A stretch of DNA of 64,000 bases from an uncultured Acidobacteriota bacterium (GTDB taxonomy: Bacteria; Acidobacteriota; Thermoanaerobaculia; UBA5066): the NCBI GenBank assembly GCA_963836285.1, contig CAWIIN010000001.1, positions 482,080-546,079 of the forward strand, written 5' to 3'. Made by a program: the position numbers and the translations under genes. Below are positions 11,310 through 53,711 of this stretch, piece after piece. The notes under the pieces are model-generated. The model made no database searches, had not been told where the DNA came from, and was given only the letters and a program-made list of their open reading frames with translations. How positions within the stretch are numbered: position 1 is the stretch's first letter; each line of letters opens with the position of its first letter.

Positions 11310-13364
11310 CTACCTGAGGAGATTGTCCTCGACGAACTTCACGCCGGCGTAGAACTGGAAGTCCTGGTTCTTCTTCTTCGAGAAGCCGTGTCCCTCGTCG
11401 TTGGCCATGAGGAACCACACGGGTCCGCCGTTCTTCTTGATCGCGGAGACCATCTGCTCGGCCTCCGTGTACGGCACGCGCGGGTCGTTCTTCCCCGCGA
11501 CGATGAACATCGGCTTCGTGATGTTCCCCGCGCTCGTGAGAGGCGAGACCCTCTCGAGGAACGCACGCATCTTCGGGTCGCGCTCGTCGCCGTACTCGAC
11601 GCGCCTGAGGTCGCGACGGTAGGCCTCCGTGTGCTCGAGAAACGTCACCCAGTTCGAGATCCCGACGACGTCGACCGCGCACCGGAACCGGTCGTTGTAG
11701 TGCGTCATCGAGGCGAGCGTCATGTAGCCGCCGTAGGAGCCGCCCGTCACCATCACGCGGCTCTTGTCGAGCCCGGGCTGCGCGGCGATCCAGTCGAGGA
11801 GGGCGCCGACGTCCTTGACCGTGTCCTCGCGCTTCTCACCGTTGTCGAGCGCCAGATACGTCTTGCCGAACCCGCTCGAGCCGCGCACGTTCGGGAAGAT
11901 CATCGCGACGCCGAGCTCGTTCATGAAGAAGTTGTTGCGTCCGAGGAAGCCCGGCTGGAACTGTCCCTCCGGTCCGCCGTGGATGTTCACGATCACGGGC
12001 CGCGGCCCCGCGAACGAAGCGGGCGGGCGATACAGGAACCCCGTGATCGTCTTCCCGTCGAAGCTCTTCCACGAGATCGCTTCCGGCTCGGAGAACGTCG
12101 CCGCGTCGAGGCCGCCCGTCTCGCTCTCGGTCCAGCGCGCGAGCCGGCCCGTCGTGACGTCCACAGAGTAGACGTCCGACGGCGAGCGCGCCGACGAGAG
12201 CGAGAACGCGAGCTCCTTCGAGTCCGAGCGGAACCGCAGGGAGCCGATCGTGCCGAGCGCGAGCTTCGGGAGCGGCAGCTCGCGGCGCGTCTTCAGGTCG
12301 AGGACATGGAGCGTCTCGGCCCCCGCGTCGTTGAGGACGTACGCGATCTTCGAGCCGTCGTCGGACAGGTCGAAGCCGTTCACGTCCCACTTCACGTCCG
12401 GCGTGAGCACGTCCCACTTCCGCGTCTCGACGTCGACGGCGACGAGCCGGTGGAACTCGTCGTCCTTGTCGCTCGTCAGGTAGACCGTCCTGCCGTCCGG
12501 GGAGAACCGGGCGCGCCCGTAGGAGACCATTTCCTTCGTCTCCGGCGTGAACAGGGTCTTCGCCCCGCTCGCGACGTCGACGAGGTAATAGCGGCTCTCG
12601 TTCGCCGAGATCGCTTCCGCGACGAGCAGGGACCGGCCGTCCGGCGCCCAGTCCGTGGCAAACCAGCCGCCGCCTTTCCCCTGCAGGACGAGCCGCTCCG
12701 TCTTCGAGTCCGACGGGTCGACCACGTAGACGTCGTTGTCCCGGCCGGTCCGTTTCGTGGATTCGTACGCCAGCCACTTGCCGTCGCGCGTGAACGGGCC
12801 TTCCGTGTTCCGCGACTTGCCGTCCGTGAACATCGACACCTTGCCCGTGCGCCCGTCGCGCAGGAAGAGCTGGAACCACTCGCCGCCGCCGACGTCCTTT
12901 CCGAACACGATGTCGTCGCTCTTCGGGCGGTACCGGGCGTTGCCGACGCGTTCCGGGTAGAACGTGAGCTGCGTCCGGGCCCCGCCCGGCATCGCGACGC
13001 GGTGAATCTGCGGGACGTCCGCGAAGCGCGTCGTGATCAGGATCTCGCGCCGCGTCGGGTGCCAGTCCGAGAAGCCCGCGGCCCGGGAATCCCCGTACGA
13101 AGCGGCCTGCGCGGCGATCGCCTTCGGGATCGGCGGGATGCCGTCCAGGACGAGCTGCTCGTTCGGGACGACGACGTCATCGGCGCACCGCGCCGGGAGA
13201 GGGAAGAAGAGAATGCTGCTCAGAAAGAAGAGAAAGGAAAGAGGAAGAGAAAGGGGGAAATGAAGGAAAGGACGAAAACGAAGAGAAGATTTTCTTAGAA
13301 GGTGAAGAGGGGCCGCAGCCCGCCCGCCCCCGGTGCCGTGAGTCGTGCGCATCGCAACCTCCAC
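11310..13364 (-). CDS. S9 family serine peptidase (prolyl oligopeptidase/dipeptidyl aminopeptidase with beta-propeller)
   Basis: 684 aa with TolB-like propeller repeats (FSPDG, WAPDG). The catalytic motifs are GGSYGGYM, ..D.RV.. and the His region NDEGHGF. The first ~60 codons are encoded by the repeat element, so the start is uncertain. Confidence 0.85.
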   Translation of the reverse strand: MEVAMRTTHGTGGGRAAAPLHLLRKSSLRFRPFLHFPLSLPLSFLFFLSSILFFPLPARCADDVVVPNEQLVLDGIPPIPKAIAAQAASYGDSRAAGFSDWHPTRREILITTRFADVPQIHRVAMPGGARTQLTFYPERVGNARYRPKSDDIVFGKDVGGGEWFQLFLRDGRTGKVSMFTDGKSRNTEGPFTRDGKWLAYESTKRTGRDNDVYVVDPSDSKTERLVLQGKGGGWFATDWAPDGRSLLVAEAISANESRYYLVDVASGAKTLFTPETKEMVSYGRARFSPDGRTVYLTSDKDDEFHRLVAVDVETRKWDVLTPDVKWDVNGFDLSDDGSKIAYVLNDAGAETLHVLDLKTRRELPLPKLALGTIGSLRFRSDSKELAFSLSSARSPSDVYSVDVTTGRLARWTESETGGLDAATFSEPEAISWKSFDGKTITGFLYRPPASFAGPRPVIVNIHGGPEGQFQPGFLGRNNFFMNELGVAMIFPNVRGSSGFGKTYLALDNGEKREDTVKDVGALLDWIAAQPGLDKSRVMVTGGSYGGYMTLASMTHYNDRFRCAVDVVGISNWVTFLEHTEAYRRDLRRVEYGDERDPKMRAFLERVSPLTSAGNITKPMFIVAGKNDPRVPYTEAEQMVSAIKKNGGPVWFLMANDEGHGFSKKKNQDFQFYAGVKFVEDNLLR

Positions 13365-13436
13365 CTTCTAAGAAGTCCGAATCCGGATCTTCATCCGAGT
13401 CCGAATCTTCATCCGTATCCGAATCTTCTTCTTAAG
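13201..13436. repeat. inverted-repeat element, copy 3 (fills the spacer between the Gre-domain gene and the S9 peptidase and extends into the peptidase ORF)
   Basis: An ~85-nt polypurine tract precedes the left arm GATTTTCTTAGAAGGTGAAGAGGGG (13288..13312). The right arm is CCTCCACCTTCTAAGAAGTC (13358..13377). Three tandem 18-nt units, TCCGAnTCCGnATCTTCA, follow (13376..13429). Confidence 0.85.
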
Positions 13437-15522
13437 CAAAAACCTCGATCTTCCGGATCGTCACCTCGTCGCCGAGCACCGTCGCCTTCTCGCCGACGAT
13501 CTTCCCGAGGAGCGCCTTGCCGAGCTCGGAGAGATACGAGTAGACGCCCTCTTCGGGCTTCGAGTCCCACGGGCCGAGGAGCGTCAGGACCTTCGTGCCC
13601 TTCGGGCCCTCGAGCGTCACGCGCGCACCCGGGCGGACCTCCGTGGTGTCGATCGCCGCCGGGTCGAGCGCGCGGGCCTTGCCGAGCTCTTCCTGGAGCT
13701 TGCCGGCCCGGGCCGAGAGGAGCTGCTGTTTGTCGCGGCGGGCCTTGTACTCGAAGTTCTCCGAGAGGTCGCCCTCCGCCGCCGCGAGCGCGATCCCCTT
13801 CGTGTTCTCGGGGATCTCGACCTTCAGGATGCGCTCGAGCTCGGCGCGCTTCCTTTCGACGGCCTCCGCGGTGACGAAGAAGGTGTCGTCCTCGGCCTTG
13901 CGGAGGTCCTTGAAGCGCATCTCGGCCGCCGCGAGGAGTCCGTCGCGGCGCAGCGGCTCGAGCTCGTGGTGCCGAGAGAGCCCCTGGAGGAACGTCCGCG
14001 CTTCCTCCACCGAGGCCTGCTTGACGAGCCAGCCCGCCACGAGGCCCGTGCGGTCGAACATCTCCCGCACTTTCGTCCGGAGCCCGCCGAGCTCCTCCCA
14101 GGAGATCGCGTCGAGCAGACGCCCGAGAACCGCCGGGGTCAGGCGCGCGCGGAACGCGTCGTCGCTCGCGGCACGCTGGGCGAACCAGACGAAGGCGCGC
14201 GGGCCCGAGCGCGGGTTCTTGAGGAGCCTGTCCAGGGTTCTCTCGCGCGTTGCGGCGTCGGCCTCCGCGAGCCTGCGGTCGATGAACTCGATCGTCCGAG
14301 CGTCCTCCTCCTTGAAGATCCATTCCGCGAGGATCGCCGGCGCCTCCGTCGGGTTCTCGCGCACGAGAACGTCGAGCGCGCGCTCGCGGATCGTGCGGTC
14401 CGACAGGCGCGCGAGGAGGGCGAGCGGCTCGCCGAGGACGTGCCGTTCGATGTCCGTCGCATGGGTGACACCGGGCACCTTCTCCACGAGGACCGCGATC
14501 TCGAACGCGGTCGCGGAGTCCCGGTCCTCGAGCGCCTCCGCGTCCGCCACGAGGATCTTCGCCATCGCGAGCGCGAGCTCGGTCGAGCGCTTCTGGTTCT
14601 TGCGGAACAGGTCGAGGCGGTCCTTGACGGCCGCCCTCTCGAACTTCGCGAGCAGCGTCGCGTCCGCGGCGGTCGCCGACTGCGACCACTCGACCGTCGC
14701 GTTCTTACCGCTTCCGTGGACGACGACCTGCGGGTTCTTCTTCGCGGCCGTCCACCACGAGGACCACGCTTCGTCGGCCACGAGACCCTTCACGGCGTCC
14801 TTGACCTCCGTCATCGTGAGCGTCCGGTCGAACGAGTCGATGAGGTGCTTGAGGGCCGCGCCGGGATCGGCGAGGACGCGTGTCTTCAGCGCGTCGGGAT
14901 TCGAGAATTTCTCGTTCAGGAAGTGTCCCGGCGGGAGGGGCACGAGCTGGCGCGACGCGATCCCGATCGGCACCGCGACGCCCTTGGCGGCCTCGAAGTC
15001 GAGCCGGACCACGCTGAGCGCGAAGTTCGTCTCGACGACCTGGCCTGCCCCGCGGTTGGCCATCGCGAAGACCTTGCCGGTCTCGAATGGGAGCCACGCC
15101 TCCGCCTTCTCGGCCCGGGCGAGCCCGTCGGCGGGGTCTTTCGCTTCGCGAAACTTGAAGCGCCCCAGGAGGCTCGTGAGCGAGGAGTTGCCGGGCCACG
15201 CCGCGGCGAGCACGTCCTCGAAGAGGCGGTGAAAGCCGTCGGGCGTGGAAGGCGTCGCTCCCGCGCGGACGGCGTCCTTGAGGATCGTCCAGCGAAGGCG
15301 CGCGGCCTCGAGGCCGCCGGACTCCTTCTTCAGCGCGGCGTCGGCCGCGCCCGCGAGGGCCTGGAGCCGGGGCTTCTGCCCGGCGCGGGCGAGCCCGCGC
15401 AGGGCCACGAGAAGGACCTCGGCGTTCGCGACGGGATCGGCGAGCGCCTCCTGGAATGCCGTCTCGACGAGATCGTAGCGCTTCTCCGCGAGAAGGCTCT
15501 GCAGCGAGGCGCCGGTCGTCAA
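13432..15522 (-). CDS. large GreA/GreB C-terminal-domain protein
   Basis: 696 aa. The C-terminus, ..AAAEGDLSENFEYKARRDKQQLLSARAGKLQEEL..VRPGARVTL..YSYLSELGKALLGK, matches the Gre factor coiled-coil tip and C-terminal domain. It follows a ~540 aa helical N-terminal extension. Confidence 0.7.
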   Translation of the reverse strand: MTTGASLQSLLAEKRYDLVETAFQEALADPVANAEVLLVALRGLARAGQKPRLQALAGAADAALKKESGGLEAARLRWTILKDAVRAGATPSTPDGFHRLFEDVLAAAWPGNSSLTSLLGRFKFREAKDPADGLARAEKAEAWLPFETGKVFAMANRGAGQVVETNFALSVVRLDFEAAKGVAVPIGIASRQLVPLPPGHFLNEKFSNPDALKTRVLADPGAALKHLIDSFDRTLTMTEVKDAVKGLVADEAWSSWWTAAKKNPQVVVHGSGKNATVEWSQSATAADATLLAKFERAAVKDRLDLFRKNQKRSTELALAMAKILVADAEALEDRDSATAFEIAVLVEKVPGVTHATDIERHVLGEPLALLARLSDRTIRERALDVLVRENPTEAPAILAEWIFKEEDARTIEFIDRRLAEADAATRERTLDRLLKNPRSGPRAFVWFAQRAASDDAFRARLTPAVLGRLLDAISWEELGGLRTKVREMFDRTGLVAGWLVKQASVEEARTFLQGLSRHHELEPLRRDGLLAAAEMRFKDLRKAEDDTFFVTAEAVERKRAELERILKVEIPENTKGIALAAAEGDLSENFEYKARRDKQQLLSARAGKLQEELGKARALDPAAIDTTEVRPGARVTLEGPKGTKVLTLLGPWDSKPEEGVYSYLSELGKALLGKIVGEKATVLGDEVTIRKIEVFA

Positions 15523-20635: not shown

Positions 20636-21944
20636 GCGTGACGATTCTGCGCCCGCCGGCCGGACGGGACTGCCGCGCGCCGTCGTCCGACTCGGGTGGG
20701 TGTCGTTCCTGACGGACGTCTCGTCCGAGATGATCGTCCCTCTCCTCCCGGCGTTCCTGACGACGCTCTCGGGCGTCCCCGCGACGGCGCTCGGCTGGAT
20801 CGAGGGCGTCGCGGACGCGACCGCGTCGTTCGTGAAGATCCTGTCGGGCAGGTGGACGGACCGCGCGAAGGCGAAAAAGCCGCTCGTCTTCCTCGGCTAC
20901 GGCCTGTCGTCCTGCGCGCGGCCACTGATCGGCCTCGCGCCGGGCTGGCCGGCGATCGTCGTGATCCGCTTCTTCGACCGCGTCGGGAAGGGCATCCGCA
21001 CCGCCCCGCGCGACACGATGATCGCGGCGGCGGCGCCGCCCGAGCGCCGCGGCGCAGCGTTCGGACTGCACCGCGCGTTCGACAACGCGGGCGCGGTCTT
21101 CGGCCCGCTCCTCGCGGCGGGGCTCGTGGGATGGATGGGGCTGGGCCTCAGGACGGTCTTCCTGCTCGCGGCCATTCCGGCGGCTCTCTCACTCCTCGTC
21201 CTGGCGTTCGGGGTGAAGGAAGATGGGAAAAGAGAAGAGAAGATTTCTTTGAAGGTCAAGGGCGCTGGGGTGGGCGGTGCGCCGCTCGACTCGCGCCGCG
21301 GTTCCCCGCCGCCCTCTTTACCACTCGAAGGAAAATCCACCGTCCCCCCGGCCGGGGCATCACCGGATGCGCTCGGGTCCGAAGCCAAACTCCCCCCGGT
21401 CTTCTGGCGCACTTCAAGCGTGTTCGCGCTCTTCGCGCTTGCCGCGTCGTCGGACACGTTTCTTCTTCTCAAAGCGAAAGAGATCGGGATCGCCGCCGCC
21501 TGGCTGCCCATCCTCTGGGCGTTCTCGAACGCCGTGAAATCCCTCTTCTCGACGTGGGGCGGGGGGCTGTCGGACCGTTTCGGCAGGCGGCGGCTGCTCT
21601 TCGCCGCATGGACGCTTTACGCGGTCTGCTACGCCGGCTTCGCATTCGTCACGTCCGCGGCGCCCCTCGTCGCGCTCGTCGGCGTCTACTCCCTCTACTA
21701 CGCGCTCTCGGAGGGAACGGAGCGTGCGCTCGTCGCCGACCTCGTCGCCCCCGAGATGCGCGGCCGGGCGTTCGGCTGGATGAACGGCTTCGTCGGCTTC
21801 GCGGCGCTACCCGCGAGCGTCGTCTTCGGCCTCGTCTGGCAGGCTGCGGGCTCGAAGATGGCGTTTCTGGCGGGATCGGCCGTCGCGGCGGTCGCCGTCC
21901 TGGGCCTCGTGACGCTCGTTCCGAAGCGGCGCAAGGCCGGGTAA
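20634..21944 (+). CDS. MFS transporter with a repeat-element insertion in the central loop
   Basis: The sequence shows 12-TM-like hydrophobicity, FLTDVSSEMIVPLLPAFL, and the GRWTDR motif between TM2 and TM3. The start is uncertain: the ATG at 20634 overlaps the recO start codon. Confidence 0.7.
   Translation: MRDDSAPAGRTGLPRAVVRLGWVSFLTDVSSEMIVPLLPAFLTTLSGVPATALGWIEGVADATASFVKILSGRWTDRAKAKKPLVFLGYGLSSCARPLIGLAPGWPAIVVIRFFDRVGKGIRTAPRDTMIAAAAPPERRGAAFGLHRAFDNAGAVFGPLLAAGLVGWMGLGLRTVFLLAAIPAALSLLVLAFGVKEDGKREEKISLKVKGAGVGGAPLDSRRGSPPPSLPLEGKSTVPPAGASPDALGSEAKLPPVFWRTSSVFALFALAASSDTFLLLKAKEIGIAAAWLPILWAFSNAVKSLFSTWGGGLSDRFGRRRLLFAAWTLYAVCYAGFAFVTSAAPLVALVGVYSLYYALSEGTERALVADLVAPEMRGRAFGWMNGFVGFAALPASVVFGLVWQAAGSKMAFLAGSAVAAVAVLGLVTLVPKRRKAG
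21214..21338. repeat. inverted-repeat element, copy 5 (in frame in the central loop of the MFS transporter)
   Basis: A purine tract precedes the left arm AGATTTCTTTGAAGGTCAAGGGCG (21241..21264). The right arm is GCCCTCTTTACCACTCGAAGGAAAATCC (21311..21338). Confidence 0.8.
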
Positions 21945-24868: not shown

Positions 24869-27800
24869 CACGTAGCTGCCGTCGGACGTCGCGTTGTCGT
24901 TCAGGACGCCGTACGCGGCGAAACGGGAGCTTCCGGAGATCCTCTCGATCTTCGCGTAGCCGGCGCAGAGCCCCGAGCGCCGCGAACGGCCGGCCGAACT
25001 GGAACCATTGCCCGGGGCCGAGAGGCTGGTCGGCGGGGACGCTGGCGAGAGGGCTGCCGTTCGAGTCCGAAGAGGGTCACACGCAGACCGATCGAGTCGC
25101 CCGCGTCTCCCCGGTTCACGAGCGCGAGATTCGAGCGCTGTGCCGCGTTCTCCTGGAGACCGTAGACGAACGCCGTGCCGGTCGCGCACTCGGCCGGCGT
25201 GAGGCCCGGGTAGAAGAGTCCGTACGAGCCCGCGGGCGCGAGCGGCACGTACGTGCGCGCCCCGACCGCGAGCGCGCTCGCGGGCGTGCCCGGCGCCGCC
25301 TTCACGAGGAGGGATCCGCCGACGTCGCGCCCGTCGTTCTCGATCGGAAGCGTCGTGCGAAGGAACGCGATCGCGTCCGGAACGATCCGCTGCTCCCCCG
25401 CCGCGAGGGTCAGGGCGATCTCGCCCGTGCCGCTCCCGAAGGCGGCCGTGTACGCGAGCGCGAGCGGAAGCGGAGACGCCGTGAGGTTCGTCAGCGTGAG
25501 CTCGGTCCGGAAGCGCGCGCCGAGGCCCGCGACGTCGAGGACGATCGGCACGAGCCGGTCCGCGCCCGAACCGTCGTCGCCGAGCAGGGGCGGGACGTAC
25601 GAGCCGTCCGACGTGACGCCGTCGTTCAGGACCGCGTACGCCGTGAACGGGGAGGCGCCGGAGACGCGGGTCACGACCGCCCTCCCGGACGCGGCCTTCC
25701 CCGCGAGCGGCTGGTCGTACTGGAACCAGCCCCACGGGCCGAGGGCGAGATCGGGCAGCGTCCCGAGATCCTCGCCGTTCGGGCCCTGGAGCGCGACGCG
25801 CACGACGATCGACGACCCGCCGGCGTTCACGACCGCCACGTTCGAGCGCTGCGAGGCGCCCTGCTGGAGGCCGAAGAGCGTTGCGGACGCTCCCGTCGAC
25901 CGGGCCGCCGGGTATGCGAGGCCGAACGTCCCGGCGCCTCCCGCGGGATCGGGCGTGAAGGTGCGCGCCCCCGCGAAGACGAGACCCGGCGATCCGACGC
26001 CGCGGAACGTCGCGAGGAGCGTTCCGACCTGGCTCGAGCCGTCTGCGGGAATCGGCAGGCCCTGGCCGCGCAGCCAGTCGACGATGCCGGGCAGGACGCG
26101 CATTTCTCCCGCCGCGAGCGTGAGGCGCGCGAACCCCGAGCCGGAGCCGACCGAGGCGGTGTAGGAGAGGATCACGTCCGTCGGCGCACCCGCGCGCGCG
26201 ACGAGGGTGAGCTCGGACCGGTAGTGGCTGCCGCCGACGCCCGAGGCCTCGAGGACGACCGGGACGAGGAGCCCGACGTCCCCGGCGGCCGGGGCGGGTG
26301 CGGTGACGTTGACGGTGAGCGTGGCCGCTCCCGTCCCTCCGCTCGCATCGCGCGCCGTGAGCGTGACGTGGAAGGCCCCGGGCACGGCGTACGCGTGCGC
26401 CGCCGGCGCCGGCCCCGTCGCTCCTCTCCCGTCGCCGAAGTCCCAGGCGAGCGTCACGGCGTCGCCGTCCGGATCCGTCGCCGAGCCGACGAACGCCACG
26501 GGAGCGCCGGCTTCGACCGTGAACCCCGGCGCCGGAGACTGGATCACGGGGACGGGCGGCCGATTCGAGATCGACGCCGCGGACGGCGCCGAAAAGAAGA
26601 GGTCGAGGGCGGAGCCCGTGTCGTCCGCCCACGAGACGACGATCGTTCCGCCCGCGCCCGCGGAGACCGAGACGCGGCCGGGTCCGCCGATGCCGTCGAC
26701 GGGATCGCCCGCGCTCCCGGAGAGCCCGCCGTTCGCGGAGAGGTTTACCGGGGGCGTGAACGTCGCACCGCCGTCCGTCGAACGCGCGACGCGGGCGTCG
26801 CTCTGGACGTCGTTCGCGTCGAACTCCTCCCAGGCGACGTCGATCGCACCCGAGGGCTCGAAGACGACGGACGGCACGTAGGACTGGTCCGCCGCCGCCG
26901 AGAGGAGGACGGGGCTCGAGAACGAGGTGCCGCCGTTCGTCGAGCGCCTGAACGTGATCTGCCGGTTCTGGAGCGCGTTCGCGACGATCGAGCGCGTGTA
27001 GAACGCGAGCGCGACGCTGTCGTCGGGCCCGACCGCGAGGTCCGGCGCGAGCGCGTAAACCGCCGCGTCCGACACGGTCGCGGCCGCCCCGAACGCGGCG
27101 CCCGCCTTCGAGACGGAGAGCCGGACCGCGGAGGACGTCGAGGACTGCTTCGTCCACGCGAGGAACGCGTCGTTCTTCGAGTCGAGGGCAATGCCCGGCC
27201 GCGCGAAGACCGACGGGGCATCGAAGATCGGAACCTGTGTCGAGAAGGCCGTCCCCCCGTTCGTCGAGCGGGACCACTCCACGACCGGCGCCGTGTCCGA
27301 GAGGTCGTACCAGACGACGACGAGGTTTCCGTTCCCGTCGGCGGCGATGTTCGGCAGCTCCGCGATCCGTCCTCCGGCGCTCACCGCGGCGGGCGCCGAG
27401 AACGTGGCGCCGCCGTCCGCCGAGCGCGCGAAATAGACGCGCGGCGCGGTGTCGGCGATCGTCCGCCCCTGCCAGACGACGAAGATGCGCCCGGTCGGGT
27501 CGATCGTGAACGTGCTCTCGTACGCGAAAGACCCGTTCGGGTTCAGCGCGAGCGGCGGGGAGAACGTCGTCCCGCCGTCCGTCGAGCGCCTGTAGGCGAC
27601 GTTCGAGCCGGTCACCGCGGAGGTGTCGTCGTCCGCGACCGCGTGCAAGACGCCCGCGGCGTCCGACTTGACCGTGCCCGTGGAGAAGCCGGCCGACCCC
27701 GTGACGTTCACGGGAGCCGGGAGCGCGCCGGAAGGCCTCACCGTGAGGCGCATGCGTGTCCCGCGGACGAGGCCGCCGGCGGACGCCGCGACGCCGAGGA

Positions 27801-29592
27801 CGTAATCGCCCGGCGGCGTCGAGGCCGGCACCGCGACCGTGAGGCGCACGGCCTGGCCGGGCATCGCCGAACCGCTCGCGAGAGTCAGGCCGAGGCCGGC
27901 CGGAGCGAGGTCCGGGGCGAGCGCGAGCGTTCCCGCGAAGCCGCTCTCGCCCGAAGCGGCGAAGTCGAACGTCGCGGTTCCGCCCTGCGGAGCGGCCGCG
28001 TATGTCGTGACCGCCGAGAGGCCGAAGTCGGGCGCGAGCGCGTCGAACGCCTCCGGGACCGCCGCCGCCCAGACGTCCGCATCGCCCGAGCGTTCGTCCG
28101 TCCAGGCGGCGTAGAAATTGCCGCCGTCCGCCGCGAGGCCGTCGTACGACGTGTGGCCGAATCCCCCGAGGCTGTGCGGCGCCGGCGCCCACGGGGAATT
28201 GCGGTCCGTGAGCCGGAAGTTCTTCCCCCACGTCGCGCCGCCGTCACGCGAGATCGCCATGTACTGGTCCGTCAGGGTGTCCCGGGCCGCGTCGTTCCGG
28301 CGGTCGGCCCAGCGCACGCCCACCGTCCCGTCCGCCAGCGCGGCGACCGACGGAAACGCCTGCGTCGTGGACGTCCCGTCGTCGTTGAGCTTGCGGGCCG
28401 CGGAGAACGTCGCTCCGTTGTCCGTCGAGCGCGCATAGAAGACGTCCGAGCGGTCCGTCGTGCCGGTCGAGACGGCGGCCCAGACGACGTGGACGACGCC
28501 GCTTCCGTCCACGGCGAGCGAGGGACCGGAATTCGACGCGGCGGCGCCGCCGCCCGCCGTCACGGGGCCCGCGGGCCGGAACGTCGCAACCGTATGCAGG
28601 GAGCCGAAGAGCTGTCCGCCGTCGGTCGAACGCGTGATCGAGATTCCGCCGGGCGAATAGTGTCCGTCCTGGTACGCGACGTACACGTCCCCGTTCGGCG
28701 CGACCGCTACCGCCGCATGGTCGACCGGGGCGCCATCGATCAAGTTGAGCGACGCGGGCGGCAGGAAGGTGGCCCCGCCGTCGGAGGAGCGCGCGAAGAA
28801 GATCGCCGTGACGCCGTAGTACGTGAAGTAGTCGGTCCACGCGACGTAGACCTGCCCCCTCCGCGGCGACGACGCGCCGTTGTCGACGGCGACCGCGGGC
28901 CTGTCCATCACGTCGTAGCCGTTCTCGACGTAGCTCGAGGGGCTCGAGGACCCCGAGAACGTCTCTCCGCCGTCCGTGGACTTCGCGAGCTCGACGCCGG
29001 TCGGGTCGCCGTTCGCCGCCGCGAGGGATGCATAGTAGATCTCGCCGGCCGAGCCGATCGCGACCGACGGGCTCCCCCAGTTGTAGATGCCGTCGGGCTC
29101 CGGGATCCGCATGTGGGCGAACGTCGCACCACCGTCGTTCGAGACGCCGTAGCCGGCCGCCGAGTACGTCGAGTCCTCGAAGCCGACGAAGACGCGCGAG
29201 CCCCGCGCGGCGACGGACGTCGTGCGGCTCGCGTGATGGTCGACGTCGAGCGTCGGGTCGTTCACACGGACGTTCTGGCGCGGAGCCGGAGCGGCGAGCG
29301 CCGCCGCCGCCGCGGCGCGCGCCTCCGGGACGCGCGGTCTCGCCGGGACGCGCGCCGGAGCCGGCGCGAGAGAGTTCGCGACGAGAACTGCCTGCCGGGC
29401 TCCCGGCGACAGCGCGGACAGGATCCCGGGCTCGAGCGCCCAGGAGAGCCGCGACGGCGTGGCGGGCGCGGTCCCGTCGGGAGCCGGACGCGGCCCGGCC
29501 GCCGAACCCGGATGAGAGACGAAGAGAAAGAGGGGAAGGAGGAGAAGATTTCTTAGAAGGTAAGAAAGATTGCGGGGGCGGCGCTGCGACAA
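24854..29592 (-). CDS. giant secreted BNR/sialidase-like repeat + PKD-domain protein with a tandem C-terminal domain; the 3' end is broken by two +1 frame shifts
   Basis: Track ORF 24901..29592 shows repeated S-x-D-x-G-x-T-F/W motifs (STDGGATF, SRDGGATW). A PKD domain is present (VAFVGSATDPDGDAVTLAWDFGDG). The true C-terminus continues in two other frames and ends ..YGVLNDNATSDGSYVPMTF at 24854. Confidence 0.8.
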
Positions 29593-35015: not shown

Positions 35016-38000
35016 AGACGACCGCCGCCAAGTTCACCGTCGCCCAGCTCGCGAAGATGATGGGCAAACCCGCGAAGGAGGTGCTCTTCCTCCTCCAGGG
35101 CATCGGCGTCGACGTCAAGACCGCCGAATCCGTCCTCGATGCCGCTACCGCAACCGCGCTTCTCGCGGGCAAGACCCAGGCGCCGAAGTCCCTCATCGTG
35201 CGGCAGGCACCGACGGCCCCTTCGGCGGCCGCCGCCGCGACCGCGGCGGCCGCGAAGGCCCGGACGGAGCGCGCGGCGCTCAAGCGCATCAAGATCGTCG
35301 AGAAGACGGCCGACACGGAACTCGCGGAGCCCACCGAGGCCGCGAGCGGGACCCCGGCCGCCGAGACCGCCACGGCCGCAACCGAGACTCCCGCCCCGAG
35401 CGCCGCAGAAGCACCCGCGGCGCCCCCCGCCGAGGCGCGCGCGGCCGAGGCGGCGACTCCCGAGCCGAAGGCGGAGACGAAGCCCGAGCCGCCCGCGGCT
35501 CCGGAGGTTGCTCACGCCCCCGCCGCGGCCCCGGCGACGTCCGTCCCGCGTCCGTCCGCCCCCCCCGCGCGCGTCGCGCGTCCTCCCCTGCCGCCGCAGC
35601 CGGCGCGTCACGCGGCTCCGCCGACACGCCCCGCCGCGCCTCCGGCACCCGCGGGCGCTCTCCAGCGCCTGCTGAAGCGCGAAGGCGGCCTGCCTCCGCG
35701 GCCGACCGGGAACCCGGCGACGCCGGTCCCGCCGCCGCAGCTGCGCGGCGACCTCATGTCGGCCTACGGCGCGAGCGCCGGTCCGAACTCACCGGGCGTC
35801 ACACACGTTCGTGCCGCCGCCCCCTCCGCTCCCGCGCAGGCCGGCGCCCCCTCGACGCCAGCCGCTCCGCTTCGGGGCGCCGGTGGTCTCGGACGCGCGG
35901 TCATCGCGCCTCCGAGCCCGTCCACGCTGCGTCCGATCCGCACCGCCACTCCGGTCATGCCGTCCGGACCCCGTCCCGGCATGCCGCCGCGCCCGTCGGG
36001 CTTTCCTCCCCGTCCGGGCTTCGCGCCCCGTCCCGGCTACGCGCCGCGGCCGGGCGGCCCCGGCGGTCCGGGATTCGGCCCCCGTCCCGGCTTCGGCCGT
36101 CCGCCGCTCGGCGGGCCCGTTGCCCCGGCGCTGCCGGACAGCGCCGACCGGCGGAAGAAGGACGCGACGAAGCCCGGCCTCGCCGCCAAGAAGGGCGACG
36201 CGAAGAAGACGGAGTCGAAGAAGCCGCGTACGAAGGAGGTCTCCGCTCTCGAGGAAGACGTGCGGGAGTACCTCGGGTCGTACAAGCAGGACACGTACGA
36301 GGACATTCCGACACCGATCACCGAAGGCTCTGACGAGGCTCTCGCGGCGGCCGCCGGAAAGCCGCTCAGCAAGTCGGCGCAGCGCCGCGCGGGCAAGAAG
36401 ACGATCGCGACGGAGACGGGCGAGGTCGTCGAGGTCAAGAAGAAGGCGTCCGGCCCCGTGTTCCTCTCCGAGGGCGTCACCGTCAAGGAGCTGTCGGAGA
36501 AGCTCGGCGTCCTCGCGAAGGACCTCATGAAGGCGCTCCTCGCGCGCGGGATCTTCGCGACGATCAACCAGACCGTCGACCCGAAGCTCGCGATCGACAT
36601 CGCCAAGGAGTTCGGGGTCGAGGCGGCCGTCGTCTCGTTCGAGGAGGAGCTCGAGCTCTCCCGCCAGCAGAACGCGATCGACCACGCCGCCGACGCGCCG
36701 GACACGAACCTCGCGGACGCGTCCGCGGGCGGCGAGCGCGTGCCCCGCGCCCCCGTCGTGACCGTCATGGGCCACGTCGACCACGGCAAGACCTCGCTTC
36801 TCGACGCGATCCGCAAGGAGAACGTCGCCGAGGGCGAGGCGGGCGGCATCACGCAGCACATCGGCGCCTACCGCGTCGAGACGAAGGGCAAGACGATCGT
36901 TTTCCTCGACACCCCGGGGCACGAGGCGTTCACGCTCATGCGCTCGCGCGGCGCGAAGGCGACGGACATCGTCGTCCTCGTCGTCGCGGCCGACGACGGC
37001 GTCATGCCCCAGACGTCCGAGGCGATCGACCACGCGCGGGCCGCGAAGGTCCCGATCGTCGTCGCGATCAACAAGATCGACAAGCCGGACGCGAACGTCC
37101 AGCGCGTCAAGCAGGAGCTCGCCGAGAAGGGCGTCCTCGTCGAGGAGTTCGGCGGCGACGTCGTCGCGTGCGAAATCTCCGCGAAGAAGAAGGTCGGGAT
37201 CGACCAGCTCCTCGAGATGATCCTCCTGCAGGCAGAGGTTCTCGAGCTCAAGGCCGTCGCGACGGGCGCCGCCCGCGGCGTCGTCCTCGAGTCGCGTCGC
37301 GAGGCCGGCAAGGGGACGCTCGCGACCGTGCTCGTCCAGCAGGGCACGCTGCACGTCGGCGACGTCTTCTTCGCCGGAGCGGCCGTCGGCCGCGTCCGCG
37401 CGATGCACGACGACCGGGGGGCGCGTCTCGCCGAGGCCGGCCCCGCGACCCCCGTCGAGGTCATGGGGTTCGAGGACCTTCCGAACGCAGGCGACACGCT
37501 CCAGGTCGTCGGCGACGAGAGCAAGGCGCGCCAGGTCTCCTCGTACCGCTCCCAGAAGGAGCGCGAGGAGTCGCTCGCGAAGTCCTCGCGGATGTCTCTC
37601 GACTCGCTCTTCAACCGCATGAAGGAGGGCGTCGCCAAGGACCTCGCGCTCATCGTGAAGGCCGACGTCCACGGCTCCGAGGAAGTCCTCGTTCAGACGC
37701 TCGGCAAGCTGCCGTCCGACAAGGTGAAGGTCTCGATCCTGCACTCGGGCGTCGGTGCGATCTCCGTGAACGACGTGCTCCTCGCGGCCGCGTCCGAGGC
37801 GATCATCATCGGCTTCAACGTGAAGCCCGAGAAGAAGGCCCAGGACCTCGCCGACCACGAGGGCGTCGAGATCCGGCTCTACTCCGTCATCTACACGCTC
37901 ACGGACGACATCAAGAAGTCCATGGCCGGCCTCCTCGACACCGTCAAGAAGGAGGTGACGCGCGGCCACGCGGAGGTGCGCGAACTCTTCAAGGTGCCGA

Positions 38001-45248: not shown

Positions 45249-45299
45249 GGACGAAGAGAAGACGAGGAGAAGAGAAGATCTTCTTAGAAGGTAAGAGGG
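45248..45299. repeat. half element after pnp (polypurine tract plus left arm only)
   Basis: GAGGACGAAGAGAAGACGAGGAGAAGAGAAGATCTTCTTAGAAGGTAAGAGGG, followed directly by the terminator hairpin. Confidence 0.8.
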
Positions 45300-45322
45300 C
45301 CCCGGCCACGCCGGGGCCTTTT
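45298..45322 (+). terminator. intrinsic terminator after pnp (possibly bidirectional)
   Basis: The stem GGCCCCGG-ccacg-CCGGGGCC is followed by TTTT. It sits where the spacer of a half repeat element would be. Confidence 0.6.
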
Positions 45323-45324
45323 CG

Positions 45325-47088
45325 TTAGCGCGCGAAGAGCGCGTCGCGGCTCGTCTTCGGAAACTCCCTCAGGCGCCGCTCCGGCGGCGCGACGCCCTGG
45401 GGCTCGACGAGCGCCATCCCCCGGTCCCCGGTCCTGACCCAGTAGCGGAACGCGCGCAGCGCGGTGTCGTAGGAGCGGTCGTCGCCGCCTTCCTCGACGT
45501 AGCGGCGGATTTCCTCGGCGGCGGCCTCCGGTCCGAGCTCCCCTTCCGCGAGCGTCGCGTACACGAGCGTGTCCGAGAAACGGTGGCGCGCGTCGTAGAT
45601 CGTCGACGGGAGGAGGGGCACGAGGGACAGCACCACGGCCGGCGCGGCGAGAAGCATCGCGGCTCTCCAGTTGTGTCGTCGAATTTCTCCGAGTGTGAAG
45701 AGAAGGAAGAGCCCGGCGCCGAGGGCCAGCGGCCCGGCAACGGCAACGCGGTATCGGGACGTCGTCTGGACGAGGAGACACGCCGCGAGCGGCGTGAGGA
45801 TCCCGACGAATGCCAACAGCCCTTCCTCCTTTCTCAGAACGCCGCGCGACAGCGCCGCGCAGATCCCGACTCCCCCGATTCCCAGCAGGCACGGAAAGAC
45901 CGGGAGCATCCTCAGGATCTTCAATCGGTCCCTGAAAAAGTAGAAGTTCGCATTGTCCGGGACCTCGAAGACGTTGAAGAACGTCGCGAGCTTTTTCAGG
46001 AAGAGCTTCGGGAGCTCGAGCGGCGTCTCCCGGTAGCCCGCGAGGACGAGCTTCGCGGTCTTCCACGTCGATCCGCCCGCTTCCTCCAGGATCTCCTTCA
46101 TCCCGGGAGGCGGGTTCGTCGTCGCGTCGGCGCCGAAGCCGTTCCCCCAGGCGAGGCCGATCGCCTGCCGCGTGTCGAACGTGAGCGGCGGGACGCCGGC
46201 GGAGACGTTCCGCACGGCGAGGACGCCGAGCGGCATCGCGAGGCCGAGGAAGCCCGAAGCCACGGCCAGAGAGCGGCGGCGAACGCCGCCGCCCGGGGAT
46301 TTCTTTGAAAGTGAATAGAGAGAGAAAAGCGCAAGGGGGAGGACCGTCTGCTTCATGAGGGTCGCCGCGCCGCCGAGCAGGCCGAGCGCGAAGGCGCCCC
46401 ACGCCGCGCGCATCGATCTCCCGCGATCCCCGCTCGAAGAAACCCCTTCGTGCTCATCGGACCTGGCCCGCGAGACGAGCGGCAGCGCGACGAGAAGCGT
46501 CGACAGGTGCGCGACGGGACCGTCGCGGTAGAGGAAGAAGTCGTGGAAGACGAGCGGGCCGTAGCCGCCGTAGAGGATGCCCGCGGCGACGGCGCACCAC
46601 GCGGCGACACGAAGCGATCGGTCGTCGACCGGCGCGCCGCCCCTCTTATCCTTTCCAAGAAAATCTTCTCCGACTCTTTGAACTGCCGCCGCGAGAACGG
46701 CCGAGGCGACGCACGCCAGCAGCATCTGCAGCAATCTCGCGGGCAGGAACGGCGACCCGAAGATCTTCCGGAGGACCGCGAGGCCGTACGGATACAGCGG
46801 TCCGGCGTAGTACGCGTTTTTCTGGTACCAGCGCTCCCACGTCTCCGGAGGACCGTACTCCCGCTGCCAGTTGAAATACGCGCGGTAAGCCGGGACGTCG
46901 GCCCAGTTCCCCGCGGCGAGCCGCGCCGACCACTCGACGTACGCGTGCTCGTCCGTTTCCGTCCAGAGGTACCACGACGCGAGCGGTGTCGCGAGAAGCG
47001 ATGCGAGCGCCGCCGCCCGCAGCGCGAAGACGAACGCGAACGCGGCGAGCGGCGCCGCGACGCGCGCGCGGGACGGGAGCGACGGCAC
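45325..47088 (-). CDS. polytopic membrane glycosyltransferase (GT39/ArnT-PMT-like) with a C-terminal soluble region; carries repeat-element arms in frame
   Basis: 587 aa with many TM helices. The N-terminal motif region is ETDEHAYVEWSARLAAGNW..GPLYPYGL, typical of ArnT-like enzymes. Confidence 0.65.
   Translation of the reverse strand: MPSLPSRARVAAPLAAFAFVFALRAAALASLLATPLASWYLWTETDEHAYVEWSARLAAGNWADVPAYRAYFNWQREYGPPETWERWYQKNAYYAGPLYPYGLAVLRKIFGSPFLPARLLQMLLACVASAVLAAAVQRVGEDFLGKDKRGGAPVDDRSLRVAAWCAVAAGILYGGYGPLVFHDFFLYRDGPVAHLSTLLVALPLVSRARSDEHEGVSSSGDRGRSMRAAWGAFALGLLGGAATLMKQTVLPLALFSLYSLSKKSPGGGVRRRSLAVASGFLGLAMPLGVLAVRNVSAGVPPLTFDTRQAIGLAWGNGFGADATTNPPPGMKEILEEAGGSTWKTAKLVLAGYRETPLELPKLFLKKLATFFNVFEVPDNANFYFFRDRLKILRMLPVFPCLLGIGGVGICAALSRGVLRKEEGLLAFVGILTPLAACLLVQTTSRYRVAVAGPLALGAGLFLLFTLGEIRRHNWRAAMLLAAPAVVLSLVPLLPSTIYDARHRFSDTLVYATLAEGELGPEAAAEEIRRYVEEGGDDRSYDTALRAFRYWVRTGDRGMALVEPQGVAPPERRLREFPKTSRDALFAR
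46297..46446. repeat. inverted-repeat element, copy 11 (in frame inside the GT39-like CDS)
   Basis: The left arm is GGATTTCTTTGAAAGTGAATAGAGAGAGAAAAG (46297..46329). The right arm is TCCCCGCTCGAAGAAACCCC (46427..46446). Confidence 0.65.
46640..46671. repeat. solo right arm inside the GT39-like CDS
   Basis: CCCCTCTTATCCTTTCCAAGAAAATCTTCTCC. Confidence 0.6.

Positions 47089-47820: not shown

Positions 47821-47824
<4 letters not shown>
47168..47824 (+). CDS. actA: alternative complex III subunit ActA (pentaheme cytochrome c)
   Basis: 218 aa with an N-terminal TM helix. There are five CxxCH motifs: CRYCH, CINCH, CVTCH, CTGCH and CSTCH. Confidence 0.85.
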
Positions 47825-50769
<2,945 letters not shown>

Positions 50770-50964
50770 CGAGAGAAGAGCGAGAGACGAAAGAGATGAG
50801 GAAAGAAGAGGGGAAGAGAGATTTTCTTCTGAAGGGAATGGGGCGGGAGTCGCGCCGCGGCTCGCGACGCGCGGCGGTGCCGCCCTCTTCCCCTTCTAAG
50901 AGAATCCCCGGTCTCCCCTCTTCACCTTCTCAGAGATTCTTCTCTTCTCCTTTCTTCGTCTCCG
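50770..50964. repeat. inverted-repeat element, copy 12 (fills the actB-actC spacer; two right arms)
   Basis: A ~50-nt polypurine tract precedes the left arm GAGATTTTCTTCTGAAGGGAATGGGG (50818..50843). The right arms are CCCTCTTCCCCTTCTAAGAGAATCCCC (50883..50909) and CCCCTCTTCACCTTCTCAGAGATTC plus a polypyrimidine tract (50916..50964). Confidence 0.9.
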
Positions 50965-50977
50965 GGGGTCTGTTCTG

Positions 50978-52347
<1,370 letters not shown>

Positions 52348-52351
<4 letters not shown>

Positions 52352-52962
52352 GCTTCCTCTCGCGGTTCTTCCCGCGCCACGTCGCGCCCGGGTTCGGGAC
52401 GCCGGGCCCGCGCGAGGGCGGCGGCAACCTCCCGCCGCACCTCTACGGCGTCATCGCCGAGTTCGCGGGCGCGCCCGCCCTCGTCCAGGCCGTGCACCGG
52501 GCCCGCGCGGAGGGCTACGTCGTCATGGAGGCCTACACGCCGTATCCCATCGAGGAGCTGAACGACGCGATCGGGCACGGCCCGTCGCGCGTGCCGCTCC
52601 TCGTCCTGGTCGGCGGGATCCTCGGGTGCCTCGGCGGCTTCTTCCTCCAGTACTGGACCGCGGCGATCGCGTACCCCGTGAACGTCGGCGGGCGCCCTCC
52701 GAACAGCTGGGTCGCCTTCATCCCGATCACGTTCGAGTGCACGATCCTCGGGGCGGGGATCGCCGCGGTCCTCGGGATGCTCATCCTGAACGGCCTCCCG
52801 ATGCCGTTCCACCCGGTCTTCGGCGTGGACCGGTTCCAGCTCGCGTCCCGCGACCGCTACTTCCTCATGATCCTCGCGCGGGACCCGAAATTCCGGGCCG
52901 GAGACACGTTCCGCTTCATGGAGACGCTCGGCGGCGTCCACGTGCAGGACGTGGAGGACTGA
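52348..52962 (+). CDS. actD: alternative complex III subunit ActD (DUF3341)
   Basis: A GTG at 52348 overlaps the actC stop (GTGA). The protein reads LYGVIAEFAGAPALVQAVHRARAEGYVVMEAYTPYPIEEL and has two TM helices. Confidence 0.85.
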
Positions 52963-53711
52963 TGCGCCGCGCGCTCCTCCCCCTCGTCGCGCTCGCTCTC
53001 GCCGGCTGCCGCAACGACATGCACGACCAGGCGAAGACGAAGCCTCTTCGCGAGTCGCCGTTCTTCGCGGACCACGCGTCGGCCCGGCCCCTGCCCGAGG
53101 GCGTCGTCGCGCGGGGCTTCCTTCGCGCCGACGCGGTCCTCTACCGCGGCCTCGGCCCGGACGGGAAGTTCGTCCTCGACCTCCCGGTTCCCGTCACGAG
53201 GCCACTTCTCCTCCGCGGGCGCGAGCGCTTCGACGTCTACTGCTCGCCCTGCCACGGGCGCGCGGGCGACGGCCAGGGAATGATCGTCCAGCGCGGCTTC
53301 AAGAACCCGAGCACGTTCCACGTCGACCGACTCAGGAACGAGCGCGCCGGCTACTTCTTCGACGTCATGACGAACGGCTTCGGCCAGATGTCGAGCTACG
53401 CCTCGCAGGTCGCGCCGGAGGACCGCTGGGCGATCGTCGCCTGGATCCGCACGCTGCAGGCCTCACAGGACATGCCGAGAGAATTTCTTGCTAAAGACGA
53501 CGAAGGGAAGCTCGAGGCGAAAACGGCAAGCGGCGAGGCAGGGGCCATGGCGCAGAAGAGTTCCTTAGAAGGTGACAGCGGGGTAACGGCCGCGCACCCG
53601 GCCCCCGGCGCGGCTCCGGCGGCGCCCGGGCCCTCTTCACCTTCTAAGAAATCTTTCTCTTCATCTTCGTCTTCCCCTTCCTCGTCCTCTCCTCCGAGCA
53701 AGACGCAATGA
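52962..53711 (+). CDS. actE: alternative complex III subunit ActE (monoheme cytochrome c lipoprotein) with an ~80-codon repeat-element-encoded tail
   Basis: It has the lipobox LALAGC and a single CSPCH heme motif. The conserved body ends near ..WAIVAWIRTLQASQ (~53470). The ORF then stays open through the repeat element to a stop that overlaps the actF ATG. Confidence 0.8.
   Translation: MRRALLPLVALALAGCRNDMHDQAKTKPLRESPFFADHASARPLPEGVVARGFLRADAVLYRGLGPDGKFVLDLPVPVTRPLLLRGRERFDVYCSPCHGRAGDGQGMIVQRGFKNPSTFHVDRLRNERAGYFFDVMTNGFGQMSSYASQVAPEDRWAIVAWIRTLQASQDMPREFLAKDDEGKLEAKTASGEAGAMAQKSSLEGDSGVTAAHPAPGAAPAAPGPSSPSKKSFSSSSSSPSSSSPPSKTQ
53478..53695. repeat. inverted-repeat element, copy 13 (between the actE body and actF; two left arms)
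   Basis: A left-arm-like sequence, GAGAATTTCTTGCTAAAGACGACGAAGGG, lies at 53478..53506. The left arm GAAGAGTTCCTTAGAAGGTGACAGCGGGG is at 53555..53583. The right arm GGGCCCTCTTCACCTTCTAAGAAATC plus a polypyrimidine tract is at 53628..53695. Confidence 0.9.

Follow-up and report, generated by a model that had tools for sequence, protein, structure and literature searches.

As summarised in PMC3184786, mycobacterial interspersed repetitive units (MIRUs) occur in the senX3-regX3 intercistronic region and carry open reading frames (ORFs) that overlap the stop and the start of the adjacent genes (Supply et al. 1997). The same paper reviews repeats that are fused in frame to genes, namely the Rickettsia palindromic elements (RPEs; Ogata et al. 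2000), BRE, BOX/RUP/SPRITE and REP2. For neighbouring genes that are coupled by termination-reinitiation, reinitiation was almost abolished at a spacing of about 20 nt (Huber et al. 2023, PMC10666635). The same paper gives an enrichment of overlaps between genes for subunits of complexes. The locus described here lies in 64,000 nt of an uncultured Acidobacteriota bacterium of the class Thermoanaerobaculia (GCA_963836285.1, contig CAWIIN010000001.1, positions 482,080 to 546,079), a stretch referred to below as the window. Its operon for alternative complex III (ACIII; act genes) has a copy of a palindromic repeat between actB and actC, and within this copy a short ORF (sORF) of 70 codons reaches from the actB stop to the actC start. 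From comparison with related genomes we think it rather likely that this sORF is a translational relay, which would keep termination-reinitiation coupling between the two genes, and that its peptide is incidental.

The reading frame between actB and actC

The actB-actC spacer of the window is 208 nt long and consists of one repeat copy throughout. This was the view of a preliminary description of the window, and it holds: the tails, two right units and a degenerate left unit could all be mapped. The coordinates which that description gave for the ORF proved exact, and the translation was identical to the peptide it quoted. The parts of the spacer are as follows.

50766..50978, plus strand: the 70-codon sORF, with its ATG in an ATGA over the actB stop and its TGA in a TGATG over the actC start
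50770..50819, plus strand: outer tail of the left arm, purine-rich (G 44%, A 33%), 48 nt longer than in L120 and L007
50820..50843, plus strand: degenerate left unit GATTTTCTTCTGAAGGGAATGGGG, recognised from the consensus of 309 aligned units and by comparison with L120 and L007
50844..50882, plus strand: GC-rich self-complementary centre, the apex of a long hairpin
50883..50906, plus strand: right unit CCCTCTTCCCCTTCTAAGAGAATC, which reads PSSPSKRI, in the same reading frame in all five same-family lineages
50916..50939, plus strand: second right unit, a duplicate 33 nt downstream, which reads PSSPSQRF (repeat-finder family D16, with an nhmmer match)
50940..50977, plus strand: CT-rich outer tail followed by GGGGG, which is Shine-Dalgarno-like, stands 9 nt before the actC ATG and lies in a local hairpin

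The ATG of the sORF (50766-50768) overlaps the actB TGA (50767-50769) in the -4 geometry of ATGA, and its TGA (50976-50978) overlaps the actC ATG (50978-50980) in the -1 geometry of TGATG. Both ends thus fall within the stop/start spacing given for termination-reinitiation coupling in PMC10666635. The 3′ end of actB contains a purine-rich, Shine-Dalgarno-like stretch (GGGGAAGG), which now lies 5′ of the sORF start. The family-consensus TAG of the left unit is in the frame of the sORF, and the codon of the window at this place is CTG. The encoded peptide includes DFLLK... and ...RIPGLPSSPSQR.

The RNA of the spacer was predicted to fold at -109 kcal/mol (z = -3.7). Its right arm is rich in C and poor in G (40% and 14% over 93 nt). 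A local hairpin of -15.8 kcal/mol pairs the start region of actC; in the window and in L007 it holds both the actC start and the GGGGG, and its 5′ half is formed by the last codons of the sORF. The TCCGGGGGTCTnTTCTGATGTCCGC junction before actC is also common to these two. An internal promoter for actC would, according to the preliminary description, have spoken against coupling; no sigma-70-like promoter was found in the spacer, which is a weak test. No Rfam family was found in the spacer at E≤1, the sole match being a chance snoRNA elsewhere. The only terminator-like match in the spacer was a weak 6-bp stem at 50953-50968, and no terminator-like T-run follows the main hairpin.

The junction in related genomes

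Junctions were gathered from the genomic contexts of ActC homologues and from two collection scans. A scan of metagenomes with an ActC N-terminal DNA pattern detected four loci, one of them informative (L120). The sample comprised 20 fully sequenced junctions, 14 insert-free and 6 filled, the window included; in addition, the contig of L007 ends inside the element. L124 begins inside actC and gives no junction, and the extra length of P0086 is C-terminal and hence irrelevant. P0001 (505 aa), which is not on record, looks like an assembly duplication. The junctions are listed below.

Insert-free, -14 overlap: L003, L004, L005, L122, L123, L127-L129, L131, L132
Insert-free, -4 overlap: L121, L130
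Insert-free, +7 gap: L006
Insert-free, +14 gap: L125
Filled, window: sORF of 70 aa, start ATGA, stop TGATG
Filled, L120: sORF of 40 aa, MKRFLLKVIGQKSRIGSRAAAAQPSSPSKKTPGVLFGGPF, start TGATG, stop TGATG
Filled, L051: sORF of 25 aa, MNRPPSSPSKKIFFSFPKQEFPDFF, start ATGAATAG, stop TGATG
Filled, L001: sORF of 43 aa, start GTG 4 nt past the TAA, stop TGATG
Filled, L007: contig begins gATG, MKRIPLKVIGLPPSLPSKRISGGLF, start cut off, stop TGATG, visible frame open throughout
Filled, L126 (unrelated palindrome): sORF of 71 aa, start TAATG over the actB stop, TAG abutting the actC ATG
Filled, L002 (other hairpins): sORF of 65 aa, start GTGA over the actB stop, TGA separated from the ATG by 3 nt

A stop-free ORF bridged the spacer in all six fully sequenced filled junctions, and the 20 fully sequenced junctions sampled included none that was filled but unbridged. 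Whether relatives overlap actB and actC directly, and whether those with the element have stops in the frame, were checks named in the preliminary description. Direct overlap was found in 12 of the 14 insert-free junctions (-14 or -4 nt), the other two having gaps of +7 and +14 nt, and the bridging frame is open in L120, L051, L001 and the visible part of L007. Stops interrupt both of the other frames in the window, L120 and L007; L051 and L001 each have one more frame that is free of stops.

Two filled junctions contain other inserts. The 215-nt spacer of L126, a more distant Thermoanaerobaculia metagenome-assembled genome (MAG) with 75% identity in ActC, is built on a different palindrome (GTCATTCTGAGCGCAGCGAAGAATC...) and folds at -109 kcal/mol. 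There the repeat occupies positions 1286-1500, with the units GTCATTCTGAGCGCAGCGAAGAATC / GATCCTTCGCTTCGCTCAGGATGAC, and reads …CHSERSEES…. The 197-nt spacer of L002 contains two other hairpins (-111 kcal/mol), the first of which resembles a degenerate copy of the window's repeat family.

Within the window's own family, the distances from the right core to the TGA are 74, 32, 20, 44 and 53 nt in the five lineages, and all are equal modulo 3. The centre is 33 nt shorter in L007. Altogether there are six length differences within the family, and each is a multiple of 3. The consensus TAG in the bridging frame has been replaced by CTG in the window and L120 and by TTG in L007. Three different constructions of the start codon at the actB stop are seen within the family. 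In L120 (260-386) a CTGATG stands at either side of the element, and what is visible of L007 (1-81) agrees with such (C)TGATG flanks; the ends of elements of this family are variable. These flanks could be a target-site duplication of an ancestral TGATG overlap, which would have created the start and the stop of the sORF automatically.

We suggest that actC was ancestrally translated by termination-reinitiation at the actB overlap or within 14 nt of it. A lineage-specific insertion of the palindromic repeat separated the two genes by 208 nt. Since reinitiation is reported to fail at about 20 nt, an untranslated gap of this length would be expected to uncouple actC and the nine genes behind it. 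With the sORF, a ribosome finishing actB would restart at the ATG in ATGA, with the purine-rich end of actB as Shine-Dalgarno sequence. This end (GG[A/G]AAGG) precedes the actC start in the insert-free L006 and the sORF start in the filled loci, so the sORF appears to have inherited the original initiation site of actC. The ribosome would then translate through the element, melting the -109 kcal/mol hairpin, stop at the TGA of the TGATG, whose A is shared with the actC ATG, and restart on actC. The relay would in this way keep the 11-gene act/cta operon chain-coupled and expose the start region of actC. As a possible further benefit, it would probably protect the right arm, which is rich in C and poor in G, against Rho. 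Selection would act on the openness and coupling of the ORF and not on the peptide sequence. The preliminary description had suggested that the element was accommodated so that ribosomes can traverse and reinitiate, and the six filled junctions, all of them bridged, lend this reading comparative support. The junction amounts to a natural experiment, with 14 relatives that have no insert there and 7 that have one, of two or three kinds, and the comparison suggests that the hand-over of ribosomes from ActB to ActC is under strong selection. It also indicates that an operon can tolerate a mobile repeat which is translatable.

How often a bridge would arise by chance was estimated with dinucleotide shuffles. 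A bridge was defined as a start between -8 and +10 nt of the actB stop, followed by an open frame with its stop between -12 and +4 nt of the actC start. When the whole spacer was shuffled, with random length modulo 3, bridges were found in 3.1% of shuffles for the window, 1.7% for L126 and 3.5% for L002. The product of the three rates is 1.8e-5, or 5e-4 if there are two independent insert types. The single case of the window would thus be mildly unusual, and its recurrence in relatives appears to exceed chance. With ends and length fixed, the interior of the window's sORF stayed open in 40% of shuffles. Across paired elements, at least one stop-free frame was found in 79% of cases in sense and 76% in antisense orientation; being open in some frame was therefore rejected as evidence, sense and antisense being equally open.

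Several observations weigh against a relay. About one frame in three is open across the copies of the family, equally in sense and antisense, and at fixed ends and length the interiors stay open in 16-69% of shuffles. The five same-family lineages share one ancestral insertion and hence are not independent, and given the hairpin likeness of L002 the independent insert types may be two and not three. With their triplet-like make-up, the CT/GA tails may make slippage by multiples of 3 more likely. The preliminary description had asked whether copies at other gene junctions keep a coupled frame more often than expected. Under a relay model with 26 frameshift perturbations per element, 10 of 32 junction copies had a bridge, with 6.6 expected (P≈0.08), so that a genome-wide enrichment was not borne out; windows of ±6 and ±20 nt gave P = 0.08 and 0.15. 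Many of these 32 copies probably sit elsewhere than at tightly coupled junctions of an operon. In L120 a canonical GGAGG stands 9 nt ahead of the actC ATG, and actC may also initiate independently there. Finally, the evidence is comparative, and the organism is an uncultured MAG.

Much of this would also suit a neutral by-product, in which the purine-rich and pyrimidine-rich arms are poor in stops, a single ancestral insertion was open and coupled by chance and passed this on to its descendants, actC uses its own Shine-Dalgarno-like site and the ORF has no selected role. The frequency of open frames in the family and in shuffles, the non-significant junction test, the triplet-like tails and, in the window, L007 and L120, the G-rich or GGAGG motif 9 nt ahead of the actC ATG all point this way. 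However, the unrelated inserts of L126 and L002 are bridged as well (joint chance about 2e-5), all six separate length differences are multiples of 3, the start codon at the actB stop is made in three ways, and the consensus stop has been lost from the bridging frame. Nor was an unbridged filled junction found among the 20 fully sequenced ones, L007 being cut off inside the element. We therefore regard a neutral by-product as unlikely.

The RNA hairpin itself could be the functional part, as an intercistronic stabiliser, a processing site or an attenuator that sets the ActAB:ActCDEF ratio, like REP, ERIC (enterobacterial repetitive intergenic consensus) or Correia elements, with the ORF incidental. 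Intercistronic repetitive extragenic palindromic (REP) sequences modulate mRNA stability, and all three insert types at this junction fold strongly (-109, -109 and -111 kcal/mol). The strength of the fold is not conserved in the same-family relatives, however, where it ranges from -19 to -117 kcal/mol, and most relatives have no insert at all. A role in RNA only does not predict a kept frame or overlaps at both ends, and the main hairpin lacks a following terminator-like T-run. A function of the hairpin alone is distinctly improbable on these grounds.

The preliminary description had also considered a genuine small peptide, and a small protein, such as an accessory subunit of ACIII or a factor for its assembly, would agree with an ORF that is conserved as such within an operon and has good coupling geometry, but it is highly improbable, as the peptide has no homologue among 5.8 billion protein clusters and no Pfam or NCBIfam match, is low-complexity and charged without a hydrophobic segment, has a G+C content at third codon positions (GC3) of 0.63 against 0.95-0.98 in actB, actC and actF, varies from 25 to 70 aa among close relatives (25-71 aa over all filled junctions), shares between lineages only the residues that stem from the conserved DNA core (PSSPSKK), is unrelated to the peptides of L126 and L002, and has no ORF whatsoever in most relatives. 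What appears to be conserved is the ORF, not the sequence of its peptide.

The operon, the repeat family and its copies inside genes

The gene order is that of an ACIII operon: actA (multihaem cytochrome c), actB, actC, actD, actE (cytochrome c) and actF. Downstream of actD/actE/actF lie SCO1 and then COX2/COX1. Pfam matches to NrfD, ActD (PF11821) and Cytochrome_CBB3 were found on the orthologous genes of L001, L002 and L006. The two genes that flank the spacer, and a second repeat copy in this operon, are listed here.

47821..50769, plus strand: actB, molybdopterin-like/Fe-S subunit of ACIII with a twin-arginine translocation (TAT) signal; NCBIfam matches to a TAT-variant molybdopterin signal and to QrcB/QrcC-like proteins
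50978..52351, plus strand: actC, NrfD-like membrane subunit, whose start MSASADRPPVIAPGYTP is consistent with homologues
53541..53670, plus strand: second repeat copy, an in-frame C-terminal tail of about 50 aa on ActE (52962-53711)

The C-terminus of actB (...GKA*) is the same as in the insert-free relative L006. The junction of actB with actA is an ATGA overlap. All remaining junctions of the operon, from actA to the gene after coxA, are overlaps of -1, -4, -8 or -11 nt, in agreement with the 1-11 nt given for them in the preliminary description. The true start of ActE is the ATG at 52962 within a TGATG, not 52959. Its repeat-derived tail reads …SSLEGDSG…PSSPSKKSFSSSSSS… and is absent from three aligned relatives. 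The ATGA overlap of ActE with actF has been kept despite this tail.

The conserved unit of the repeat is about 25 nt long, CCCTCTTCACCTTCTAAGAAATC(C/T)T (309 units aligned), and is palindromic over only 4+4 nt (TTCT-N-AGAA). It is followed on the outside by a more weakly conserved CT-rich tail, with no conservation on the inside. Paired units are 31-216 nt apart and their centre sequence is not conserved across copies; optional tails reach up to about 50 nt. A profile search of 930 kb detected 316 units, which form 87 inverted pairs (69-258 nt) and 141 single units, and about 11-12 copies of the repeat are in the window. An exact-pattern scan of species-representative genomes found at least 112 stretches; among the matches listed, all were from Thermoanaerobaculia/Acidobacteriota MAGs. 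One of these, L022 (MFD05942.bin.2.82), has 87-94% identity to the window over 9 kb, which assigns the window to this class. A literature search found no description of this Thermoanaerobaculia repeat, and the family appears to be abundant in Thermoanaerobaculia and undescribed.

Many copies are translated inside genes. The coding frame and strand of both flanks were called from GC3 periodicity, which was validated on the act genes. Of 51 co-directional pairs, 16 lie in frame inside long ORFs, as do 34 single units, and in 8 further pairs the upstream ORF runs through the whole element to a stop just past it; at least 22% of the copies are inside ORFs. The usual in-frame reading is (D/I)FLEGEEG ... 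PSSPSKK(I/S)F; every other frame runs into a consensus stop, be it the TAG or TGA of the left unit or the TAA of the right one. Nine hosts were confirmed by Pfam as real proteins, with domains on either side of the insert or extending across it: UvrD, a double ABC ATPase, MurE, RNase R (within the RNB domain), alanine racemase, Fmt, PheT, a DnaE-like polymerase and a transporter of the major facilitator superfamily (MFS). A glycosyltransferase is also among the hosts, and the in-frame loci are L025, L029, L040, L047/L065, L059/L091, L066, L073, L074, L105 and L108. Short ORFs and odd protein tails in these MAGs should therefore be annotated as repeat-derived.

Some individual copies may be mentioned. 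The RNase R pair and, separately, the glycosyltransferase pair have the insert at an identical site in two genomes. In the alanine racemase gene (L066, 832-1044), inverted units flank native conserved Alr sequence with no repeat-specific centre. Because the Alr units flank native sequence, what moves or is repeated may be one 25-nt unit by itself and not the pair. Two more copies in the window, at 21230-21349 and 46288-46320, lie in frame within long ORFs, one in an MFS-like protein (…EEKISLKVKG…) and the other in a 587-aa membrane protein on the minus strand (…SLSKKSPGG…). At 13180-13440 of the window (minus strand), the frame of a gene stays open for more than 80 codons past its TAA, through a complete element (…DFLEGGG…PSSPSKKIF…) whose long tails are hexamer repeats (GAATCC-like); the stop could be recent, or the extension could be of a read-through type. 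A single left unit at 45250-45330 directly follows a stop codon and is itself followed by a canonical intrinsic-terminator hairpin (GGCCCCGGC…GCCGGGGCCTTTT). Outside the window, a second relay-like ORF on the same repeat family, MLRKVFRPGAAPLARRVRAAARPSPSSPSKKIFLFS, was found in another operon (L084, about 1440-1560, L084 1510). It begins at an ATG in ATGCTTAG that overlaps the upstream stop, and it ends in a TGA that overlaps a TTG start downstream.

Other repeats were also seen in the window. At 26750-29020, inside a long coding region that looks like a repeat-domain protein, there are diverged direct repeats (families D1, D2 and D4) whose period is about 162 nt and multiples of this. Periodic repeats of 18 nt (CGGGCTT/CCCGTCC-type) in a 77% GC stretch at 35988-36095 are probably a low-complexity Pro/Gly-rich coding segment.

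A wider reading, which we offer tentatively and consider possible but doubtful, is that relay ORFs are a general and repeatedly evolved way for operons of stoichiometric membrane complexes to survive structured repeats. Selection for ribosome continuity would then have given unrelated inserts at one junction a doubly coupled bridge each. The repeat family itself would have been shaped to be translatable, with its stop-free frame (DFLEGEEG...PSSPSKK), and would persist in this way in the genes and operons of a free-living, high-GC bacterium.

Comparison with known systems

MITEs (miniature inverted-repeat transposable elements) have terminal inverted repeats, a small size and no transposase gene, all of which are seen here. 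Unlike classical MITEs, the present family has no conserved internal sequence (the centre measures 31-216 nt), and the units in Alr flank native gene sequence.

REP elements, bacterial interspersed mosaic elements (BIMEs) and REPINs, which pair REP units, are similar in that short units (20-40 nt, a range that includes the present one) are found alone or paired in inverted orientation, with many copies per genome, frequently right behind a stop codon, and form hairpins in mRNA. The unit described here, however, is AT-richer, carries no GTAG or CGTC tag (CCCTCTTCACCTTCTAAGAAATC) and has only the 4+4 palindrome. With at least 22% of its copies inside ORFs, it is also not extragenic, and it does not belong to the REP elements.

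The likeness to RPEs lies in an abundant palindromic repeat that is translated in frame inside housekeeping proteins and at C-termini. The copies are many (87 inverted pairs of 69-258 nt in 930 kb, which covers the RPE-like size of about 100-150 bp) and fold into hairpins, and in genic copies the frame is kept and the host domains are intact. The RPE host has a reduced intracellular genome, whereas the present host lives freely in soil and has a GC content of about 70%. The conserved unit here is short (about 25 nt), can be single and can flank native sequence, as in Alr, and the ORF between actB and actC is free-standing and coupled, not a fusion. The comparison is an analogy by description: we claim no homology, and the repeat is not known from Rickettsia. 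Translation of a repeat inside many essential proteins is best known from RPEs, and in-frame fusions have also been reported in other bacteria.

The two ends of the sORF are canonical for termination-reinitiation (-4 for ATGA and -1 for TGATG), and the operon encodes a heteromeric membrane complex, as in the systems of PMC10666635. The difference is that two reinitiation events would here be chained, through an otherwise meaningless ORF, across a mobile repeat.

The closest precedent is provided by the MIRU ORFs of mycobacterial operons. They too stem from an intergenic repeat in a polycistronic operon, with a co-directional ORF that overlaps the stop and the start of its neighbours at both ends; in the account that PMC3184786 gives of them, the homologous regions of a related species are without the repeat. 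The two are set apart by structure and host. MIRUs are units of 40-100 bp in direct tandem arrays in Mycobacterium, while the element here, in Thermoanaerobaculia, consists of two 25-nt units in inverted orientation around a variable centre, one unit being partially duplicated (33 nt). The present element has, moreover, been conserved long enough for a comparison between species, and at the same junction unrelated inserts have arrived convergently at this solution. What it appears to add to the MIRU case is cross-species and convergent evidence of selection on the bridging ORF.

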